Below, in pieces: positions 37,513 through 52,437 of a DNA stretch of 64,000 nt. The DNA is from Nitrososphaeria archaeon. GTDB lineage: Archaea; Thermoproteota; Nitrososphaeria; JACIWG01. Location: the NCBI GenBank assembly GCA_963752255.1, contig CAVVXT010000012.1, positions 64,001-128,000 of the forward strand, given 5' to 3'. A program made the position numbers and the translations under genes. Numbering within the stretch: position 1 is the stretch's first letter; every line of letters starts with the position of its first letter. The notes beneath the pieces are model-generated. The model worked only from the letters and a program-made list of their open reading frames with translations. It did not search any database and had not been told where the DNA came from.

Positions 37513-39648
37513 TTGATGGCTGAAGAGCAACATATTATTATGAAAGTCGAAGACTTGTCTTCCACTATATTAAGCTTAGATCACGTGGACCATGTTATTC
37601 AAACAGCTTTTAAGGGTCACGTGAAGCTTGCTTCAGATCATATTTTAAACAGAGGGATGATAGGATGTCTTGAAAAAACCGTTGGAAGCATAACGCGAAA
37701 GTTGAATTTAAAATTCTATGAAAGTAGATACCTTCCCTTACAGGAATCGATTATCGTTCGGACCAAATCTTATGCTACACTTTTAAATATAGCATTAAAT
37801 TTTTTTGGTTTTGAGCGTGTACTAATAGGGTTTTCAGAAGATGAAACAGAGAGTGCTATTAACTATGTAAGAAGAACTTTAGGTGAGTGGGAAGAATATG
37901 AAAAGAAATATTTTGCGACTACGATCGCAAAGGATGTCGTCGACGATTTTATTGCTGAAATGAAGATACCGATGTCCAAGAACTATAAACCACCCGGGTC
38001 GATGACCTCGAAGATAGGTGAAACCGTAGAAGGAAAGCTTAGGGCGGATGAGAGGATGTTGAGCTTTCTGGAGGCGGTAAAAGAAGAAGTTCAAGAAAAT
38101 ATATACTATCGCTTAAGTGTTAAGAAGAACAGGTTCGGCAACGATTATGCTCTTGGTTTGAGGTGGCTGAGGCATTTGGGTTACGTTCAGGTTTCAACAA
38201 ACCCAGTTCTAGCCGCCGCAGCATATGTAGATGATCCCTCTCTATGGGATGGCTTTAAAGGTGAAAGCTTCTGCCAGGATTTCAAAACGGTAGCAAAGGA
38301 GAACAGAAAATGGTTAGATGAACCAGAAGCGTTCGCCGACGAAATTGCAATGAAGGCCACCGAGATATCCGTCTTTCCTAACCTAGGCAGTGTTCAGGCC
38401 TATCGCTATATCCTCAAACTTTGTAAACGGCATGGTTAGCTATCAGCTCAGCCCGAATGTTAGTGGAAGCAGTGAAGAGAGTATTAAGGACGCTTTACAG
38501 ATATATTCTGATGCCTCTAATTTTCTCAGAAAATATGACGAATATCTTCTGTGGGGATATAATGATTTCGACATTGAAAAGATGCGACCAAATATTGTGT
38601 TCAAGGTCGCAGGAAACAATTCTTCTTCTATTGATACAACACACGATTTAGAGAGTTTGGGAATAGGCACGAACAACACCGAAACTTATACTGTCTCGCA
38701 GGAGACAACTCTAATAATTTCTAAAATAGAGGGTAGAGCGAAAGCTGTCAAAAAAGGGATTCATGTCGGAACATCTTATGAAACTACTATGTGTGGACGA
38801 CTCAACGACTATTTGCGTGAAAAGCAGGCTAAAATAATGTTGGAAATGATTTATAACAAGAACAAAGACCTTTCTGCTATAACATTACTAGCCAAAGATC
38901 TTGGTGTACAGGATGCAGGTGCTCTGTCTATCGAAAAGCTATTCGAGATATCTAGCGATCGTAGTTATCTTAGCTCATTAACGATTAAACCTTTCGTAAA
39001 ACTTGTTATGGACGCAGATATGTTCGGAGGAACGAAGGAAGAAGTGCAGGCATACTTATCAAGGTTGGAAGACGATATCTGTAAATGTGGAATAGCCGTT
39101 ACGCAAAGGATTTATGAAGTCTTCTTTGTTCCGGAGAATAGGTCTAAATGGCTGAATCATATCAGAGCCAGATTCGAGCTGAATGAAGAGCAGGCGGAGG
39201 AAGTTATAGCGTTCATAGACATGCTTCCCGCTTCGAAGAGAAAACCTGAGAGACATTTTTGACCCTCGCATCAAGTAACATGACTAATACAGAATTTCCG
39301 AACCATCAGACAAACGTCTTGAACGAGAGTAGGAAACCAAGTTTCAATTTAGAAGAATATCTGGATGCTGTTGTGAACAAGGTAGTTGGAGCTGAAACAA
39401 TGCAAAGACTTTCTGAAGAATATGACATAAGGGATGAATGCAGAAAAGCTTTACAACTTACACCTGCTATTTTAGGAAAGCTGAAAGATGTTGGGGTAAA
39501 CGTGAAATTCGGAGAACATGGACTGACACCTGAGGAATGGCCTAATTTTGGGGCTGTAATAAAAACTAAGAGCGAATTCGCAAAAGCTTATAATAATTTC
39601 AGGCAAGAAGCGGTTAGCTTTGTCAAAAAAACAAAAAACAGTTTATAG
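37513..39648 (+). CDS. Large (~710 aa) transaldolase-family protein, split by 2 apparent indels
   Basis: VSTNPVL, VSYQLSP, NIVFKVAG (Schiff-base Lys), TNNTETYTVSQ and MCGRL across ORFs 37513-38439, 38390-39262 and 39259-39648. Confidence 0.75.
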
Positions 39649-41930: not shown

Positions 41931-43061
41931 TTACGATTTATGCAATGGATATTTACCGTATTTTCTTGCCTCATCGACCATAGTGTATATGTTTTCTACC
42001 TTAACGTTCGCATGAAGCGAATTGCTCGATGTCAGGACGTAGCCGCCTCCCTTCGCTGCTTCATCTATACATCTTCTAACGTCCTTTCTAACCGCTTCCT
42101 CATTCCCAAATGGTAGAACATTCCTACAGTCAACGTTTCCGGCGAGACAAATTCTGCTTCCATATCTTTCTTTTACATCTTTCAAGCTCATCACCCCCGG
42201 CTCAATAGGATGGAGACCTGTTATTCCCGTATTAACGATGTCATCAAGAATTGGGTATAGATTTCCATCCGAATGCTTCATCAAGGGTATACCATGTTTC
42301 TTAGCGATATTTACTATCTCTTTCAGCTTTGGGAGTTCATATTCTCTGAAAAGTCTAGGGTTCATCATTGGAGCTTTATTATCTGCGTAATCGTCTGTAA
42401 CAAATAAAACATCGATACCGGCTTCGATAAGGGATTCGGCAAACCCTTGACAGGTCTTTGAAATCTTGTCAAATAGCTTGCGGGCGAAGCTCGGGTTCTT
42501 GTAAAAGTCTATTGAAAGTTTGTCAATACCACCTCTAACTTGGAAAGCCATATGCCATCCGCTGTGGCATTGAGCCATTATTACAATATCCTCTCCCTTT
42601 ATCCTTCTTATCGTTTTCTGCATCATTTCTACGATGTCGGGATGGAAAGGATCTGGCGCTTGGTAAATATCTAGATCTTCTGGAGAATTTATTGTACCTC
42701 CTACAAAGTATGTAGTTTTGGATCGCTGATCCGTCTGCATTATTCTACCCCAGTGGTCTATGTACCTCTTCTCGTCGATATACTTGGGTTTATAGTCCTT
42801 GGTTGTCAGTGAATAGTCTGACATTGCCGCAACCGCGTCGAAGTCGATCTTCTTGCATGCTTCAAACATAGAAAGTCTATAGTCTATAGACGACTGCCAG
42901 CTGTCGCTCCCCCCAGCCATACTTAATACTGGTCCAAGCTTCTTTCCCAAAATTGCTTCAACAATGGGGGGATCTAGAGCTAAATCTGTTATCGGCACGC
43001 AATCTGGTTCCTTCAAATCAAGTGCTGTGAAGAATCGTTCCCGATGGTTCATACGATTCAT
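41931..43061 (-). CDS. MtaA/CmuA-like methylcobamide methyltransferase (URO-D superfamily)
   Basis: MNHRERF, PDCVP, TDDY, KHSDGN, HPIEP, GNVDC, GGGYVL.SSNS. Adjacent to corrinoid genes. Confidence 0.8.
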   Translation of the reverse strand: MNRMNHRERFFTALDLKEPDCVPITDLALDPPIVEAILGKKLGPVLSMAGGSDSWQSSIDYRLSMFEACKKIDFDAVAAMSDYSLTTKDYKPKYIDEKRYIDHWGRIMQTDQRSKTTYFVGGTINSPEDLDIYQAPDPFHPDIVEMMQKTIRRIKGEDIVIMAQCHSGWHMAFQVRGGIDKLSIDFYKNPSFARKLFDKISKTCQGFAESLIEAGIDVLFVTDDYADNKAPMMNPRLFREYELPKLKEIVNIAKKHGIPLMKHSDGNLYPILDDIVNTGITGLHPIEPGVMSLKDVKERYGSRICLAGNVDCRNVLPFGNEEAVRKDVRRCIDEAAKGGGYVLTSSNSLHANVKVENIYTMVDEARKYGKYPLHKS

Positions 43062-43143
43062 CTACTGATGCCTTGCAATTATTCTTATAAGCTTTTAACT
43101 AATCATTAAGCTGATTCTGAACGTTGTTTGAGTGTTGATCTCA

Positions 43144-43158
43144 GCGAAACTTATAAAT
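43144..43158 (+). promoter_or_regulatory. BRE-TATA promoter for the RACE/thyA-like unit
   Basis: gcgaaac-TTATAAAT about 33-40 nt upstream of ATG 43191. Confidence 0.55.
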
Positions 43159-43190
43159 GAAAGCTTTTTAATGAAAAGTGAGCTTTAGAG

Positions 43191-45059
43191 ATGTCGAAAA
43201 GATTACACAAGGTTACTGTTTATCCAAAGGCTTCAATCATATATACAAGTGATGGAGAAACATTATTCGAAGCTTTACTTAAAAATGGAATAGAGATCGG
43301 GGGCATATGCGGCGGAAAAGGGTTATGTGGTAAATGTTATGTGAGGGTAGCTAAAGGCGCGGTATCGCCTTTGACTAAGCAAGAGGAAAGATGGCAAAGG
43401 GTGCTCGATTCAGATAGTAGACTGTCCTGCCAGATTCGGATTCTATCGGATGCTGAAATAGAATTGAATCAGCAGTCAAGGGCTTCCGGAACCAAGATTC
43501 TTGTTTGGGGACAAGAAGTAAAATCAGAACTAAAGCCGAATGTGACCAAATGTAGGGTGGTGTTGAAGAAACCTTCCCTAGATGATCAAGAAGCAGATCT
43601 TAACAGACTTCTCTTATGTTTAGACATTGAAAGGTACGACAGCCTTATACTAAGAAAAGTTTCAAATGTGATGTGGAATTCTGACTTTGACGTTGATGTA
43701 GCTATTTTCGATGATGAACTAATCGACCTGTGTCCACATTTTGAGGCAGGTCACTTATACGGAATAGCTTTCGATATAGGTACAACAACCGTTGTTGGCT
43801 ATCTACACGATTTAGAGGACGGAAAATTGTTAGCTATCAAATCTCACTACAATGAACAGATAAAATTTGGAGAAGATGTTATTAGTAGAATCGAGTTCGC
43901 AAACAGGAATGAAGAAAATCTGTCCAAGATGCATTCGGCGATAATTGAGACTGTAAACAGAATCATCTCTGAACTTTTAGAAGAGGCAAAAGTAGATTCC
44001 GAAAAGATTTATGATATCGTCTGTTCCGGCAACACCGTCATGTGCTCTTTTCTCCTAGGGAATAGTGCCTACTACTCTTCGCGTGTACCATATATTCCAC
44101 CTTTCACTTTACCCACGAAATCTAAGACAAGAGACCTAAAGGTTATTTCAAACAGAAACGCGTATCTTAGAACCCTGCCTTCAATAAGTGCCTACGTTGG
44201 AGGAGATCTGGTTGCAGACATACTTGTTTCAGGAATACATAGATTTAAGGAACCTGCTGCTTTGGTCGACTTGGGAACAAACGGAGAAGTAGTCATTAAG
44301 ACTGAAGACAGTTTTTTGGCATCTTCCTGCGCTGCTGGCCCCGCCCTTGAAGGATACAGCATAAGGAACGGTATGAGGGCGATGGAAGGAGCCATAGAGT
44401 CGGTATCCATAAGCGAAGATAACAACGAGGTCTTTTTCAAAACTATCGGTGGAATTGAACCTTTAGGTATATGCGGTTCAGGAATCGTTGAAGCACTGGC
44501 ATGGATGAAGATAAAAGGAATTGTTGATAGAACCGGAAGAATAATTCAGGGATCAAGTAAAAAAATTATCAAAGAAAATAGTGAACTCCAGTTTATACTC
44601 TTCCAAGAGAAAGGGAAAAGAATAGTTATAACACAAAATGATATTCGGAAGCTTCAGTTAGCTAAAGCAGCAATCTTCTCCACGCTACTGACGCTGGCAA
44701 AGCTGGGAAAGGTTGACATCAGAGACTTCAAGAAACTCTTCATCGCAGGCGCTTTTGGCACATACATCGAGCCTTTTTACGCTGCAGTGATTGGCCTATT
44801 ACCTGAACTACCCAATGACAGATATACCCAGATTGGAAATGGCTCTGGTGCGGGTGCAACCGCTCTGCTTTTGTCTAGAAATGAATGGAAGAAGGCGGAC
44901 TCTATCGTTAAAAAAGTTAAAGTTGTCGAGCTCAACCTGATAAAGTTCTTTAAAGATGAATTCATTAACGCAACCTTTATCCCTCACAAAGATGAATCGT
45001 TATTCGACAAGACCCTGAGCTCGATTCGCCCCTTAGATTGGAAAAGATATAGCGCCTAA
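43191..45059 (+). CDS. Reductive activator of corrinoid proteins (RACE/RamA-type ASKHA ATPase with N-terminal 2Fe-2S ferredoxin)
   Basis: CGGKGLCGKC...RLSCQ ferredoxin, DIGTTT, GEDVISRI, DLGTNGE, AAGPALEG, GICGSG, QLAKAA, AGAFG. Confidence 0.92.
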   Translation: MSKRLHKVTVYPKASIIYTSDGETLFEALLKNGIEIGGICGGKGLCGKCYVRVAKGAVSPLTKQEERWQRVLDSDSRLSCQIRILSDAEIELNQQSRASGTKILVWGQEVKSELKPNVTKCRVVLKKPSLDDQEADLNRLLLCLDIERYDSLILRKVSNVMWNSDFDVDVAIFDDELIDLCPHFEAGHLYGIAFDIGTTTVVGYLHDLEDGKLLAIKSHYNEQIKFGEDVISRIEFANRNEENLSKMHSAIIETVNRIISELLEEAKVDSEKIYDIVCSGNTVMCSFLLGNSAYYSSRVPYIPPFTLPTKSKTRDLKVISNRNAYLRTLPSISAYVGGDLVADILVSGIHRFKEPAALVDLGTNGEVVIKTEDSFLASSCAAGPALEGYSIRNGMRAMEGAIESVSISEDNNEVFFKTIGGIEPLGICGSGIVEALAWMKIKGIVDRTGRIIQGSSKKIIKENSELQFILFQEKGKRIVITQNDIRKLQLAKAAIFSTLLTLAKLGKVDIRDFKKLFIAGAFGTYIEPFYAAVIGLLPELPNDRYTQIGNGSGAGATALLLSRNEWKKADSIVKKVKVVELNLIKFFKDEFINATFIPHKDESLFDKTLSSIRPLDWKRYSA

Positions 45060-45111
45060 CATTTGAATTTCCTTTTCACTGTTAAAACAAAAGATTTTTA
45101 ATGGCTCACAG

Positions 45112-45969
45112 TTGTCCCTAATTCAGAGCTTAATGATACCTGTATTGCTTGTTACAGGAAAGGGAATAGCGGAAACGTGGGAAAAATCGCTAAAAACGTT
45201 ATGTAAAAACGGCATTAAAATTAAGACCGAATATGATAAACCAAAAGATCCACCTAGCATCGATGCTACAATGATAATGGTAGTAAGTGAACCTCTCTCT
45301 GAGCCAAGAATCCATCTATCTATCCCTTCTATGTTCAAGGACCTAGAGAAGTATAAACAAGAAGTGATTGAAGGCGTTCATGACCATTGGATTGACCCAA
45401 AAAGCGGAAAATGGACTTATACATACCATCAAAGACTTTTCAAATATCCCACACAAGAAGGATTCATCGATCAAATCGATTATTTAATCAACAAACTTGC
45501 AAGTGTCCCCTACACAAGAAGAGCTCAGGCAATAACTTGGAACCCTATGTTGGACCCCTCAACTGACGATCCCCCCTGTCTTCAAAGAATATGGCTAAGA
45601 TGCACCGAGGAAGATGGTGAGCTGAAGTTGAATATGAACACTCATTGGAGATCAAGAGACGCCTACAAAGCAGCTTTCATGAACATTTTTGCTCTAACCG
45701 AACTACAGAAAAAAATTGCAGCGATGCTATCAAAGAAGATCAAAAAGGGAATCGTAGTCGGTCAGTACACGGATATTTCCGATTCATATCACATATATGG
45801 ATCTTATTTAGACGACTTTAATAGCAGGTTCCTCAAGGCAATAGAATTAAGGGAATTTTATTCGGAGAACATACGCAATTCTCGAACCATAGCGAGTACA
45901 CATCCTATTGTTCTAAAAGAGTTTGAGCAAGGTAAAATGGAACTGGAAAAAGAGCTTAGATCCAAATAA
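45112..45969 (+). CDS. thyA: Thymidylate synthase-like protein (archaeal ThyA type)
   Basis: YTYHQRL, TRRA, PPCL (catalytic Cys), RSRD....FMN and SYHIY motifs. Confidence 0.85.
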   Translation: MSLIQSLMIPVLLVTGKGIAETWEKSLKTLCKNGIKIKTEYDKPKDPPSIDATMIMVVSEPLSEPRIHLSIPSMFKDLEKYKQEVIEGVHDHWIDPKSGKWTYTYHQRLFKYPTQEGFIDQIDYLINKLASVPYTRRAQAITWNPMLDPSTDDPPCLQRIWLRCTEEDGELKLNMNTHWRSRDAYKAAFMNIFALTELQKKIAAMLSKKIKKGIVVGQYTDISDSYHIYGSYLDDFNSRFLKAIELREFYSENIRNSRTIASTHPIVLKEFEQGKMELEKELRSK

Positions 45970-46178
45970 TCGACCATTATTTACGTGAAAATGTAAATTG
46001 TGCAAAAAGTCGATCGACGTAGAAAGTAGACAACATAAGTCGGTGTTTTATGTTCAATCTATATAGTATTAACAGTGGAGAGATTTTGAGCATTTTATCT
46101 TCTAATGTTCAAATACTTAATGTTGAGGTAGAATCTTCGAAATCTCATAAGAAGCTATTCGCAAACTTTTAAAGGCAT

Positions 46179-47528
46179 TCAGGTTTCTAAATAGTCTTTA
46201 ACCTTGAGTTTTCCAACCTTTTGCTCGTAACTCGGTAGGGTTTGTTCAACCCTCTTTAAGGGGTCTCGATAAATATCATCCAATTTATCTTTCGCAGTCT
46301 CCAGATACCTTTTCTCGCTCTTGCCAAGTTCTAACCTTTGTTCTCCCATCATCAATATTGAAGCCTTTATTCCACTGGAGATAGTTCTAGAAAGCTCGTC
46401 CCCTCCACCGACTATGGCTCCCCCTATTTCACAAGCTATTTCTGGAGATAGAACAAAAGCCTGAGGGTCAACATATTTGTCGGATTCAACCAAAATATTC
46501 TTCAGTTCTTGCTGTTTTCCAATTTTTATCGCTGTGTTCATAATTTTTGTGTCATAGTGGAGAATCTCCAAAAAAACTTCTGGACCGTAGCCGCCGAAAA
46601 GCCTAACGTTTTCAACCTGCTCATTTGACCAAAGATCACAAACTCCACCGACAATGTTTCCGACAAGACTCGAATGTGCACAAGCAGCGGTCTTACCCTC
46701 CAATGACATAGGGTAACCTGTTATTGCCTTAATAATCACATTTTCATAGGCGCAATCCTTTCCAGGTCCAATAGCACCCTCCTCGTACGCTACTAGGCTT
46801 CTACATGCTGACATAGCCCTTACTATCGCTGCAAGAGAGTGGGGGATGACATTGTCTCTTAGACCCCCTGCAAGCCTCATTGAAGTATTACCAAATGCGC
46901 CAGCACTGTCACCACCCGCGATAACATTCTTATTCCTGGCGATTTTAACGATTTCCTTCCACAGTTTTTTCATATCGTAAGTTGCCAAGTACCCTAATGC
47001 CGCGACAATTCCAAGAAGGTCTTGCCTTATTACTGCGTAGTTAAAAAGTTCTTTTCCGCCTTCGGATTCTATCGAGAGGACATCAGCGCCATTAGAAGCT
47101 ACCTGCTCAAAAGCATCCATCATCCTATTGAATCCCCCTTCGTCGTTTTTTGGCTTGCCGAAATCCCTTATGTCTGGAACAGTTACTCTGAGAGCGAGTT
47201 GCATACCATATTCTTTAGAATATTCGTCTATCAGATTCTTCTGTAGTCTAGTTATTTCTCCTGGAAGAGTCGAATGCTGCATCTCAACATATGTCAATTC
47301 GGTTTCAAGCTGGAGTTTATCCACGCCTAAACTCGTTGCCCTCTTCAAAACCTGTTCTGTTATAGCTTTAAACTCTTCCTTCGAATCTTTGCCTACTCTT
47401 GGAAAATACTTTATCTCGGGTACAACACATCCTTTTCCTATCTCTAAGCCATTGCCATATATCAGGGGATGGCGGCTAAAACCAAAAACTAAACTATTTT
47501 TATCGAGCTCCACCTTGTTAAACTTCAT
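46179..47528 (-). CDS. mtaB: Methanol:corrinoid methyltransferase MtaB family
   Basis: LSIESEGGKE, RSLVAYEEGAIGPGKDCAYEN, EGKTAACAHSSLVGN, DLWSNE. Likely start MKFNKV. Confidence 0.92.
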   Translation of the reverse strand: MKFNKVELDKNSLVFGFSRHPLIYGNGLEIGKGCVVPEIKYFPRVGKDSKEEFKAITEQVLKRATSLGVDKLQLETELTYVEMQHSTLPGEITRLQKNLIDEYSKEYGMQLALRVTVPDIRDFGKPKNDEGGFNRMMDAFEQVASNGADVLSIESEGGKELFNYAVIRQDLLGIVAALGYLATYDMKKLWKEIVKIARNKNVIAGGDSAGAFGNTSMRLAGGLRDNVIPHSLAAIVRAMSACRSLVAYEEGAIGPGKDCAYENVIIKAITGYPMSLEGKTAACAHSSLVGNIVGGVCDLWSNEQVENVRLFGGYGPEVFLEILHYDTKIMNTAIKIGKQQELKNILVESDKYVDPQAFVLSPEIACEIGGAIVGGGDELSRTISSGIKASILMMGEQRLELGKSEKRYLETAKDKLDDIYRDPLKRVEQTLPSYEQKVGKLKVKDYLET

Positions 47529-47551
47529 ACGGAGCCTTGCTCCCCCCTTTC

Positions 47552-48193
47552 TTACGCTACCCACTGCTTGCAGAATCTTACTCCTTCTACCGCGTTCGAC
47601 CCATAGCTGTCGGCGCCTATGCTCTTGGCAAATTCTTCGGTGACAGCCGCGCCGCCAATTATGACTTTAACCTTCTTCCTTAAACCGGCTTTCTTAAGCT
47701 CGTCTACAACGTTTTCCATTTCCACCATTGTTACCGTCAGCAGAGCTGACATCGCGACTATGTTAGGCTTATCTTTCTTAACAGCATCGACGAACGCTTC
47801 TGCGGAGACATCGGCACCCAAATCTATGACGCTAAACTCAGATGCTTCAAGCATCATCGAGACAATGTTCTTTCCTATATCGTGAAGGTCACCTCTAACA
47901 GTTCCTATAACAACTTTCCCAATCTTCTTAATCTTGACACCCTTCAGTTTTGGCTCAAGTAGCTTTGTTACTTCTTTTCCAATTTCTCCAGCAACTATGA
48001 GCTCGGACAGAAAATATTCGGACGCTTCGAACTTTTTACCTACGATCTCCATACCTTGAGCTATACTTTTGAGGATTACTTGTTGTGGATCGACCCCCAT
48101 CTCCATAGCCTTTAGAGTATTCTCTTTTGATTTGTCAAAGTCAAGGTTTACTATATTGTCACGAATTGCTTCCAGAATCTCGTCTTTGTTCAT
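47552..48193 (-). CDS. mtaC: Corrinoid (B12-binding) protein MtaC/MtbC family
   Basis: Cap domain plus GDLHDIGKNIV (DxHxxG), SALLT and IIGGA motifs. Confidence 0.92.
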   Translation of the reverse strand: MNKDEILEAIRDNIVNLDFDKSKENTLKAMEMGVDPQQVILKSIAQGMEIVGKKFEASEYFLSELIVAGEIGKEVTKLLEPKLKGVKIKKIGKVVIGTVRGDLHDIGKNIVSMMLEASEFSVIDLGADVSAEAFVDAVKKDKPNIVAMSALLTVTMVEMENVVDELKKAGLRKKVKVIIGGAAVTEEFAKSIGADSYGSNAVEGVRFCKQWVA

Positions 48194-48342
48194 ATCTTCT
48201 CTCCGTCTCATTTATCAAATCTATATTTAAGTTTTTTCGTGAATGAGGATCCCGTTAAATATTTTTATTTTATTATTCAATCAGAACGCTGAGAGTCTTA
48301 TTTTCAGTGGAAAAAATTAATAAGTGTAGATAGAGTTCAATA

Positions 48343-49296
48343 CTAAAGCGTATTATATGATTTTATAATTTCCGCGTGGTCTATTTTTCCATCCCCGTCT
48401 TGATCGTAACCCTTAATTATCGAAGCATACCTTGACTGCCCATTGTAGAATTTTAGTATCTCTTCTGACAGTTCTGTCAAACCGATTATGGCCGATTTTG
48501 TTCCGAGATGTCTAATACCAGCTATAATTATGATACACTTTTCAGGGTCATAGGGATTTTTGATCTTGGAGATTAAAGCATCCGTCTCCCCCTGGTACAC
48601 ATTGCCATCTTGATCAATTAGACCTGACCAATAGTTTGGCTCCGCAAACTTTACAGGAAGATACTTATTTATTTCGGATGTTATAATATTTGTTACGGGA
48701 CCTCCTACCAAGATGAGGTTTTCATTATATAATCGTTCAGCTTTAATATCCGTATCTAAGCGGATAATGAAATTCTTTAGATTACTTGAATATTTTCCAA
48801 GGAAAAAAGATAATTCTGCTGCATAGTGACCGTCTCGTGCGACAGCCCTAAAAGGCCCATGTGGTTCAGGCGAACCTACAACAATGTACCCATTAAATGA
48901 GTCATCTTTGCAGAATTCTTTGAAAAATAAAGGGAATTTGTTATATAAATGATAAATTTTTAAAGCTTCTTCCTTTGATTCTTTAAATAGTATTGTAATT
49001 CCATTATTTGACAAGAGAACTCTTTTTGCACTAGCGCCGCGGATATTCTGTTCTTCGACTACGTTTATTATGCCAGATGTTATTAGTTTTTTAATGTGAT
49101 AGTAAACGCTTTGTTCGTTTAATGAAAGTTCTCTGGCTATCTCTCTGGCATACTTTGGCTTGTCTTCAATAGAATGGATTATCTTCCAACTTATCTCATT
49201 TGATAATACTCTCGTAGGGGTCAAGTCAAAAAATACTGAAGTATGGGCAGTAAGATTCTTATCTTCTTTTTGGTATGTTAAAAGTCCTTCAACCAT
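48343..49296 (-). CDS. ArsR-like HTH regulator with C-terminal alpha/beta domain
   Basis: KYAREIARELSLNEQSVYYHIKKL HTH, NLILVGGPVTN. Divergent from glmS. Confidence 0.75.
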   Translation of the reverse strand: MVEGLLTYQKEDKNLTAHTSVFFDLTPTRVLSNEISWKIIHSIEDKPKYAREIARELSLNEQSVYYHIKKLITSGIINVVEEQNIRGASAKRVLLSNNGITILFKESKEEALKIYHLYNKFPLFFKEFCKDDSFNGYIVVGSPEPHGPFRAVARDGHYAAELSFFLGKYSSNLKNFIIRLDTDIKAERLYNENLILVGGPVTNIITSEINKYLPVKFAEPNYWSGLIDQDGNVYQGETDALISKIKNPYDPEKCIIIIAGIRHLGTKSAIIGLTELSEEILKFYNGQSRYASIIKGYDQDGDGKIDHAEIIKSYNTL

Positions 49297-51303: not shown

Positions 51304-52437
51304 CTATTTACTATAGTACGTTTGCCCATATTTCCAAGCTTCATCGAACATGGCAACAATGTTCTCTGGCGGCGTTAATGGTTGGATATTATGAACCGAC
51401 GCTAGAACGTATCCTCCACCTTTACCTAACTGATTTATTCTCAACCTAACTTCTTCTCGAACATCTGATGGTTGGCTAAAAGGAAGAACATGCTGCGTGT
51501 CTATTGCACCCCAAAAGGCGACCTTGTCTCCAAACTTCTCCTTTAGATCTTTGCCATCCATCCCTTTTGCCGATACTTGGACAGGATTGATACCTGATAG
51601 ACCAGCATCAACAATGTCATCGATAAGGGAAGATATTGCTCCATCACTGTGAATTATGACCTTGGCTTTCGTTACGCGTTTGAAAGCGTCAACGATTTTT
51701 ATATGCTTGGGCTTAACGTACTTCCTATAAACTTGCGGCGATATTATGGCAGCTGTCTGAGTCCCTAGATCATCTCCAAAGAATACGAAATCGAGATAGT
51801 TGCCAATAGGTTTGACGTATTCTTCAATTAAACTAACCATTATACCCGCAACTTTTTCCATAATTGCATCAGCAATTTCAGGACGTAGTATTATATCAGC
51901 TAGAAACTGTTGATAGCCTCTGAGAAGCATCGAATGCGCAAAGGAGCCAACTATTACATATGGCAAACCTACAGCGTAGTCCTGTTTAGCAAGTCTTTCG
52001 GCCTGATCGATCATATCTTTGAGATCATAAGAGATGGTGTGTGAATCAGGCCAATTGAATTGCTCTATCTCTTCCATATCTTTTGCCTTTGCGAGTGGGC
52101 TGCCATCCTTTGTCACGTCATAATAATATCCTGTGAACCTCCTCTTAACACCCCATACATCTAGCATTTCTTTTGGATAGTTGAGCTCTTTTCCAGCAGA
52201 TTTTGGATAGATATACCTCGTATCTACGTGAAATTTCCTAAGAACTTTTTCGTCTGGTCTAGATGATCCACTAATCAAATCTAAAAGCCTGATTTTATCT
52301 ACGTCTATCTTAAGATTTCTAAGAAGAGGTTTATATGCTTCAACATGTATCGTGGAAACTGTTCCACCCATATCGATAGGTATACGGTCAGGCTGTTCAT
52401 GGTTGAGAGCAGACAGGACCCTTTCTCTGGAGTTCAA
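51304..52437 (-). CDS. URO-D/MtaA-CmuA superfamily protein (second copy)
   Basis: MNSRERV...PDRIP, GDDLGTQ, HSDG, NPVQ, FWGAIDTQ, GGGYVLASVHNIQ. Confidence 0.85.
   Translation of the reverse strand: MNSRERVLSALNHEQPDRIPIDMGGTVSTIHVEAYKPLLRNLKIDVDKIRLLDLISGSSRPDEKVLRKFHVDTRYIYPKSAGKELNYPKEMLDVWGVKRRFTGYYYDVTKDGSPLAKAKDMEEIEQFNWPDSHTISYDLKDMIDQAERLAKQDYAVGLPYVIVGSFAHSMLLRGYQQFLADIILRPEIADAIMEKVAGIMVSLIEEYVKPIGNYLDFVFFGDDLGTQTAAIISPQVYRKYVKPKHIKIVDAFKRVTKAKVIIHSDGAISSLIDDIVDAGLSGINPVQVSAKGMDGKDLKEKFGDKVAFWGAIDTQHVLPFSQPSDVREEVRLRINQLGKGGGYVLASVHNIQPLTPPENIVAMFDEAWKYGQTYYSK

Follow-up and report, generated by a model that had tools for sequence, protein, structure and literature searches.

The window analysed here is a stretch of 64,000 nucleotides (nt) from a Nitrososphaeria archaeon (contig CAVVXT010000012.1, positions 64,001-128,000), and the subject of this report is a divergent thymidylate synthase-like gene, thyA, that lies inside a cluster of corrinoid methyltransferase genes at window positions 41931-48211. 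Five open reading frames (ORFs) are present, and their domains confirm the order and strands that an earlier note on this DNA had given: URO-D/MtaA-like (-), RACo (+), ThyA-like (+), MtaB (-) and MtaC (-). The first gene (41931-43061, -) encodes a candidate 'MtaA-like' methyltransferase of the URO-D family (PF01208, 124 bits). The second (43191-45059, +) encodes a RACo-type ATP-dependent reductive activase of corrinoid proteins, in which Pfam profiles recognise the Fer2 (2Fe-2S), linker, middle and ASKHA domains (PF14574, 275 bits; PF17651, 185 bits; PF17650; PF00111). thyA itself (45133-45969, +) encodes a thymidylate synthase-like protein of 278 amino acids (aa) from a divergent PPCL family, its reading frame being open from a TTG at 45112. 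mtaB (46179-47564, -), for a methanol:corrinoid methyltransferase (PF12176, 498 bits, positions 3-459 of 460), is convergent with thyA, and beside it lies mtaC (47552-48211, -), for a corrinoid protein composed of a cap and a Rossmann B12 domain (PF02607, B12-binding_2, and PF02310, B12-binding). Two of the start sites deserve comment. The ATG at 45133 (MIPVL...) is where ThyA homologues of 277-280 aa start, and the gap between RACo and thyA is therefore probably 73 nt (45060-45132) rather than the 52 nt of the earlier note, a figure that holds for the TTG at 45112. The stretch described in the note ends at 48193, and this is borne out: it is the second Met, likely the true start, and is supported by relatives.

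Residues of ThyA are numbered from the Met at 45133 and were aligned to the L. casei and E. coli enzymes. The residues for catalysis and for binding deoxyuridine monophosphate (dUMP) that the earlier note had listed are all in place. Arg129 and Arg130 correspond to the dUMP phosphate arginines Arg126 and Arg127 of E. coli, Cys149 in Pro147-Pro148-Cys149 to the catalytic Cys146, Arg173, Ser174 and Asp176 to Arg166, Ser167 and Asp169 (RSxD), Asn184 to the uracil-selecting Asn177, and His220 and Tyr222 to His207 and Tyr209 (HxY). To these the alignment adds Tyr98, the equivalent of the Tyr general base Tyr94. On the folate side, the DRTG and ELLW motifs are unrecognisable, as had been noted, residues 1-72 giving no alignment to E. 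coli ThyA, but a counterpart of the folate-side IWDEW motif (E. coli 79-83) does exist, namely VHDHW (82-86). An intact pterin pocket had been held to speak against an unusual methyl donor. Three of its residues, Asp176 (E. coli Asp169), Trp86 (Trp83) and Asp84 (Asp81), are kept (hhalign, probability 96.7), whereas Trp80 is replaced by His and Phe176 by Met; the Glu58 and Arg21 regions cannot be aligned. Finally, the Leu that the note saw after the catalytic Cys is real (Leu150 in place of E. coli His147) but is no peculiarity of this gene, for among 223 homologues of 250-335 aa, 181 of the 188 with PPC have Leu in the next position.

The match of the protein to PF00303 (45.8 bits, cut-off 24.3) covers profile positions 80-220 only. 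The best-scoring curated family is TIGR03283, at 130.8 bits against a cut-off of 174.55, and the score lies below the cut-off of every NCBIfam ThyA equivalog. An AlphaFold2 model built from an 83-sequence alignment reached a pLDDT of 97.7 and a pTM of 0.94, and Foldseek matched it to classical ThyA chains and to the CMP hydroxymethylase MilA only (probability 1.00, TM 0.55-0.61, 15-20% identity), the matches including no solved structure of a close relative. The family is large: 1437 representative clusters were found at E <= 0.001 and 7525 proteins were word-matched, with many members at 51-63% identity in uncultured bacteria, Omnitrophota and Ratteibacteria among them. Most of the 83 aligned homologues come from bacteria without corrinoid genes nearby, and the window protein agrees with the consensus in all 60 columns conserved to at least 80%, the pterin-contact Asp and Trp included. 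The idea of a deviant enzyme is therefore not sustained: by its sequence, the window ThyA is typical of its family, the large and divergent PPCL group that occurs in archaea and in many anaerobic bacteria. Ten of the 15 long homologues were scanned for added domains; seven have intein/Hint/LAGLIDADG domains near the catalytic Cys (P0121, P0134, P0140, P0144, P0170, P0233 and P0242), one (P0127) has RNase H/RVT_3 at its N-terminus, two consist of the ThyA domain only, and a fusion to a B12 domain occurs in none of the ten. Inteins and an RNase H fusion are hallmarks of DNA-precursor genes.

The window ThyA is the only PF00303 match in its genome (94.67% complete), and ThyX was not found there, so the check for another thyA or thyX that the earlier note had proposed turned up neither. 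A second genome of the genus (97% complete) likewise has the ThyA gene, and ThyX was not found in it. Because both genomes have ThyA and no ThyX, ThyA must suffice for the synthesis of deoxythymidine monophosphate (dTMP) in this genus. In other genera of the taxonomic family, five genomes (G002, G004, G007, G008 and G009) have both an Mta-linked ThyA and ThyX. SHMT is present in the window genome, PurP is encoded by two genes, and Meth_synt_2 was not found in it.

Three of the genes beside thyA are single in the genome: RACo is the only copy (tblastn), MtaB is single-copy, and MtaC is the only B12-binding domain found. Its DxHxxG motif is Asp108, His110 and Gly113 in an alignment of ten clade sequences. 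The label 'mtaA-like' must be given up for the 41931-43061 protein, which scores 80 bits on the MtaA equivalog (cut-off 400) and, aligned to MtaA (4ay7), has HSD in place of HxC and lacks the GCG cysteine, and thus has no MtaA zinc ligands. With these missing, it is more likely, to judge by its sequence, a substrate:corrinoid enzyme (methyltransferase 1, MT1, type) or a non-thiol methyltransferase 2 (MT2). Its distant relatives in the Protein Data Bank include CdmB, of a chloromethane:corrinoid methyltransferase system (excerpts of PMC13222342), and by this analogy it may load rather than unload the corrinoid. The position of the gene is kept at loci arranged like that of the window (type A, below). 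It is one of five URO-D-family paralogues in the genome, the others being at window 51304-52437 (-), C10:115648-116751, C6:17011-18051 and C4:4998-6281; these may be substrate-loading methyltransferases, e.g. for methoxylated compounds. The paralogue at 51304-52437 (PF01208, 98 bits) has its counterpart beside MtaC in L024, L026, L112 and others. According to excerpts of PMC8065059, Brockarchaeota lack MtaA and, as a lineage, Mcr, the methyl group must be handed on by a protein not yet described, and transfer to tetrahydrofolate (H4F) is proposed; thymidylate goes unmentioned in the excerpted main text of that paper.

The neighbourhoods of ThyA relatives were surveyed on genome contigs (80 of 167 relatives kept) and on metagenome contigs (80 of 239 kept). 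Within the archaeon's own taxonomic family, the order RACo-> ThyA-> <-MtaB <-MtaC is kept by all seven relatives with readable flanks, and a 2.6-kb contig (G006) keeps MtaC-MtaB-ThyA. Across the archaeal genome loci L021-L033, RACo and/or MtaB/MtaC lie beside ThyA in 12 of 13; the exception, L032, on a 5.7-kb contig cut off shortly after ThyA, shows none of the three. MtaB or RACo was beside ThyA in 0 of 67 other genome loci, one of which (L083) has a B12-binding MtaC-like match 2.5 kb from ThyA, and a distant archaeal ThyA (G057, ~55% identity) has no RACo, MtaB or MtaC within 14.9 kb. Metagenome loci of at least 69% identity all carry the linkage or, in L115, a MetE-like neighbour (7/7), and the linkage was seen in none of the remaining 73, 35 of which are single-match loci of at most 6 kb. 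The ThyA-corrinoid linkage survives rearrangement, and it does so only inside the Brockarchaeota clade. The recurrent association that the earlier note had asked after is therefore found throughout this clade, while adjacency to MtaB or RACo was not seen at the surveyed loci outside it, nor fusion to a B12 domain in the ten long homologues scanned.

Two arrangements were distinguished. Type A is that of the window; one genus has a variant of it, with genes for a glycerate kinase (DUF4147/MOFRL) and for an enolase separating thyA from RACo. In type B (L030, L031) the order is GH127(-), ThyA(+), Meth_synt_2(+), [MtaC, MtaB (+)], RACo(-), PurP(+). The glycerate kinase and enolase genes, at L023:7343-9943 (+) and, by spacing, also in L028, would correspond to serine-cycle-type steps. 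A MetE-like gene follows thyA at L030:10911-11822 (+), L031:5621-6535 (+) and L115:2798-3346 (+), and encodes 303 aa in type B; in this sister lineage it precedes mtaC-mtaB or RACo, with PurP beside RACo, and the whole resembles a biosynthetic island for one-carbon (C1) and methyl metabolism. Chance placement as the sole explanation within the clade is ruled out, the linkage being kept in both arrangements. Phylogenetic inertia is compatible with the placement, because the unrelated orf334 and orf117 share the same synteny block. URO-D-like matches 3-5 kb from ThyA at eight bacterial loci were considered as linkage and set aside as weak matches several genes away; in L034 and L039 the match is on the other strand, several ORFs off, with one ORF taken from its N-terminal sequence as miaA-like.

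In the gap before thyA we read a box resembling the B recognition element and TATA box (BRE/TATA-like), acaaaagatttttaat, ~35 nt ahead of the ATG on the plus strand. The window shares with all eight type-A relatives' loci displayed a CAAAA..TTTTAA/T box that lies 25-40 nt ahead of the thyA start codon, and at these eight it is kept whether RACo or enolase lies upstream. It would thus be thyA's own archaeal promoter. An operon of thyA with RACo is weakened as an explanation both by this box at type-A loci and by the glycerate kinase and enolase genes that separate the two in one genus. A sigma-70 and terminator scan of the locus gave background level and is not applicable to an archaeon. Directly beside mtaC, a gene at window 48343-49296 (-), kept in the same-genus G001, encodes a 317-aa protein with an N-terminal ArsR/HTH_20-type winged helix and an S_layer_C-like domain, and could regulate the cluster.

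We also asked how ThyA of the window's type is distributed relative to RACo, FolA and ACS. RACo is present in 10 of 10 bacterial genomes with such a ThyA, ThyX being found in none of the ten, and in 16 of 17 further genomes, four of which belong to the Brockarchaeota clade and one of which, G221, is the miss. A phylum sample of 151 genomes, in which related genomes are not independent, was then divided by type of ThyA (bacterial phylum of G066; G071-G218). The 70 genomes with classical ThyA have DHFR_1 in 70, RACo in 0 and ACS (CdhC) in 0. The 35 with divergent ThyA (17 of the window's type and 18 of a second short type) have DHFR_1 in 0, RACo in 32 and ACS in 27, and the 46 without a PF00303 match have DHFR_1 in one, RACo in three and ACS in three. 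Taken alone, the window's type goes with RACo in 16 of 17 genomes of the sample, against 19 of 134 among the rest. In L106 and L107, RACo is followed by three ORFs taken from their N-terminal sequences as CooC, AcsD and AcsE, and would be part of an acs (Wood-Ljungdahl) cluster. The second divergent ThyA type lies near RACo there (11-22 kb), but this was rejected as linkage because about nine ORFs, taken from their N-terminal sequences as housekeeping genes, stand between the two. Since RACo of the sampled phylum probably sits in the acs cluster, the simplest reading of the co-occurrence is a split by lifestyle or clade, in which Wood-Ljungdahl or corrinoid-using anaerobes carry divergent ThyA and do without FolA. 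Three ThyA-family genomes lacking ACS have a short RACo-like ORF, of ~400 rather than ~630 aa (G092:C4:21376-22056, G182:C3:93804-94490, G146:C14:4076-4756). The family of the window ThyA breaks the ThyA-FolA rule put forward in excerpts of PMC9931769, and the split within the bacterial phylum makes one ask by what means dihydrofolate could be recycled there, FolA being absent.

Taken together, we put at about even the chance that the window gene is a housekeeping, pterin-dependent ThyA whose placement reflects the synteny of its clade; its fold, its residues, its status as sole copy and its distribution are shown by the analysis, and the donor, together with the lack of direct coupling to the neighbouring corrinoid genes, is what we infer here. 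ThyA is a member of a known fold and its activity is very probably a known one, within a family that is uncharacterised, lacks FolA and, in this clade, sits in a corrinoid module. In the proposed mechanism, dUMP would be held by Arg129' and Arg130' together with Arg173, Ser174 and Asn184, Cys149 would add to its C6, and Tyr98 would remove the C5 proton. Serine would most likely be the source of the one-carbon unit, which SHMT would load onto a pterin as methylene; Asp176 and the VHDHW motif would contact this pterin. Placement in the Mta cluster would be synteny of the Brockarchaeota clade, and may bring co-expression with one-carbon genes while leaving the chemistry unchanged. We prefer this reading because the sequence is orthodox, the pterin-contact Asp and Trp are conserved and SHMT is present; because thyA has its own promoter-like box, no adjacency is seen outside the clade and no B12 fusion was found in the ten long homologues scanned; and because dTMP synthesis from labelled formaldehyde, with modified pterins, is reported for archaeal cell extracts, a use of C1 at the formaldehyde level (excerpts of PMC9931769).

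Several observations weigh against it. FolA/DHFR_1, MTHFR, Pterin_bind, GcvT and MtrH were not found in the window genome, and FolD (THF_DHG_CYH_C) gave two matches only, both below the cut-off, so that, of the folate and pterin families looked for along the lines of the earlier note, SHMT alone was found, and the recycling of an oxidised pterin is left unexplained. Among 49 other genomes that carry this ThyA family, only one has DHFR_1. Two different gene arrangements keep thyA linked to RACo, MtaB and MtaC. Finally, co-folding of two ThyA copies with MtaC (with the ThyA alignment and the MtaC alignment of ten clade sequences) gave scores of 0.61, 0.63 and 0.60, against 0.00 for the best of three controls, so that the co-fold which the note had suggested outscored its controls. 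The mark it passes was attained for 58 of 80 solved complexes and for 2 of 110 mismatched pairs, an approximate yardstick for this three-chain job with its own alignments; the score is one of model confidence, and 7 of 44 blind-picked neighbour pairs pass as well. At least 86% of the contacts recur between runs, with a partner pLDDT of at least 82. On ThyA the contacts are loop 60-70, Trp86 of VHDHW, helix 227-236 and the C-terminal segment 246-274, and MtaC contributes cap residues 22-25 and 64-76 together with 112, 115, 132 and 134 beside the DxHxxG loop. In the model, MtaC thus sits over the cofactor entrance of ThyA, and the positions of the motif suggest that the contacted face is the one that carries the corrinoid. 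The 24 ThyA interface positions have 0.80 identity among nine clade sequences (0.76 for the rest of the protein) and 0.20 among 77 other homologues (0.44 for the rest). Their conservation in the clade, 0.796, compares with 0.583 (standard deviation 0.057) for variability-matched non-interface positions, a value that 0 of 5000 draws reach. This pattern fits a clade-specific interface and, equally well, a clade-specific site for an unusual pterin tail, since the patch is presumably where classical ThyA holds the folate tail.

A first alternative is a corrinoid-dependent ThyA. On this reading, which we consider unlikely, MtaB (from methanol) or the URO-D-like enzymes would methylate Co(I)-MtaC, RACo would repair Co(II), and CH3-Co(III)-MtaC would dock over the cofactor entrance so that the methyl passes directly to C5 of dUMP: the C5 carbanion of Cys149-dUMP would attack the methyl, Co(I) would be released, and no dihydropterin would form. 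SAM-dependent C5-pyrimidine methyltransferases (SAM, S-adenosylmethionine) make an analogous direct attack on a methyl group. In its broadest form, the whole FolA-less family would possibly be B12-dependent and make dTMP free of folate. The passed co-fold (0.61 vs 0.00) speaks for it, in joining ThyA loop 60-70, Trp86 and the C-terminal helices to MtaC beside DxHxxG, as do the clade-specific conservation of the patch, the adjacency at 12 of 13 genome and 7 of 7 metagenome clade loci in two arrangements, the status of MtaC as the only B12-binding domain in the genome, and the genome-wide counts (FolA 1/49; RACo 10/10, 16/17, and 16/17 vs 19/134). There is also no recognisable MT2: the zinc ligands are absent, MtrH and Pterin_bind were not found in the window genome, and an MT2 is missing in the account given in excerpts of PMC8065059. 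Against this, the pterin-contact Asp and Trp are nearly invariant, bacterial members at 51-63% identity have no corrinoid neighbours, RACo co-occurrence is explicable by lifestyle or clade, five relatives also carry ThyX, the conserved patch is a cofactor-tail site that could reflect a lineage-specific pterin, and the co-fold test is also passed by the blind-picked pairs mentioned above. We know of no ThyA-fold enzyme that uses a corrinoid. Our literature search found, in the excerpts it returned, no link between a thymidylate synthase and a corrinoid protein. Methyl transfer from CH3-corrinoid to dUMP by ThyA, which the earlier note had put forward, would be a minority reading.

About equally probable, in our estimate, is an indirect coupling, in which a normal methylene-pterin ThyA sits in a one-carbon island and is tied to it metabolically or by regulation. 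Methyl groups from methanol or methoxy compounds would then reach the pterin through an unidentified MT2 and an oxidation step or, alternatively, ThyA or ThyA-MtaC would be co-regulated with C1 supply, dTMP synthesis following C1 availability. The company kept by thyA is in line with this: glycerate kinase and enolase between RACo and ThyA (L023, and L028 by spacing), a MetE-like gene after ThyA and PurP beside RACo (L030, L031), a MetE-like gene in L115 and the MtaC-like match 2.5 kb from ThyA in L083. Transfer to H4F by an undescribed enzyme has moreover been proposed (excerpts of PMC8065059). What tells against it is that the genome shows no way of turning methyl-pterin into methylene-pterin, MTHFR not being found and FolD being below cut-off, and that thyA runs convergent to mtaB and is preceded by a promoter-like box of its own. 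Far less probable than either is that the gene encodes another pyrimidine-modifying enzyme of the ThyA fold, e.g. a MilA-like or dCMP/dUMP hydroxymethylase. MilA matches the protein as well as classical ThyA does, both in fold and in profile score, and the protein does score below every NCBIfam ThyA equivalog cut-off, but two ThyX-less genomes of the genus offer no other candidate for dTMP synthesis, the protein has Asn at the uracil-selecting position, and all ten bacterial genomes examined with this ThyA family were also without ThyX. The pterin-dependent housekeeping ThyA thus remains the reading we prefer.

Should the corrinoid route prove true, it would be a third route to thymidylate and new enzymology. 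It would bear on the cofactor use of archaeal-type ThyA and on life with ThyA and without FolA, and it would provide the first named acceptor for the methyl groups of the Brockarchaeota Mta system, for which the second methyltransferase is reported missing (excerpts of PMC8065059). The ordinary reading has its own yield, in that it too leaves a clean, testable ThyA/FolA/RACo split in the bacterial phylum sample.

Elsewhere in the window, a transaldolase-like gene at 37513-39648 (+) is broken up into three ORFs that overlap, each in a frame of its own (308, 290 and 129 aa). The same stretch in the same-genus G001 is one uninterrupted ORF of ~715 aa, so the window copy has two frameshifts; it may be a pseudogene or reflect an assembly error.

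The window protein can be compared with several known systems. Two non-homologous routes to dTMP, ThyA and ThyX, are described in excerpts of PMC9012536, both with methylene-folate. With classical ThyA (E. coli, L. casei; PF00303) it shares the TS fold (Foldseek 1.00, TM ~0.6), the PxC Cys, the partner-subunit Arg pair, RSxD, the equivalents of Asn177, His207/Tyr209 and Tyr94, and the pterin contacts Asp169 and Trp83. It differs in being 15-20% identical, in its unaligned N-terminal 72 residues, in the changes of His147 to Leu and Trp80 to His, in a long C-terminal helix and in lacking a FolA partner. Closer is the methanogen-type ThyA (TIGR03283, thy_syn_methano), matched at E 4e-38 over positions 2-196 of 201, with which it shares a PPCL-type active site and an archaeal, FolA-less context; the PPCL of the methanogens' enzyme we take as given. 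Here the differences are a score below the cut-off, a length of 278 aa against ~200 positions and an extra C-terminal region. Excerpts of PMC9012536 and PMC9931769 state that cofactor use in archaeal-type ThyA has yet to be characterised. The surrounding genes recall the MtaABC methanol:CoM system of Methanosarcina, in which MtaB, a DxHxxG MtaC and a RACo-type activase are likewise adjacent, but the window cluster has no His-Cys-Cys zinc site of MtaA, its MtaB and MtaC fall below the equivalog cut-offs, MtrH was not found in its genome, and a ThyA gene stands inside it. DNA C5-methyltransferases, TrmA, MetH and the archaeal MetE-like enzymes invite comparison of mechanism only, there being no relationship of sequence or fold. 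They illustrate the two half-reactions that a corrinoid ThyA would join, namely Michael addition of a Cys at C6 and nucleophilic attack on the methyl of a donor, with Co(I) left behind.

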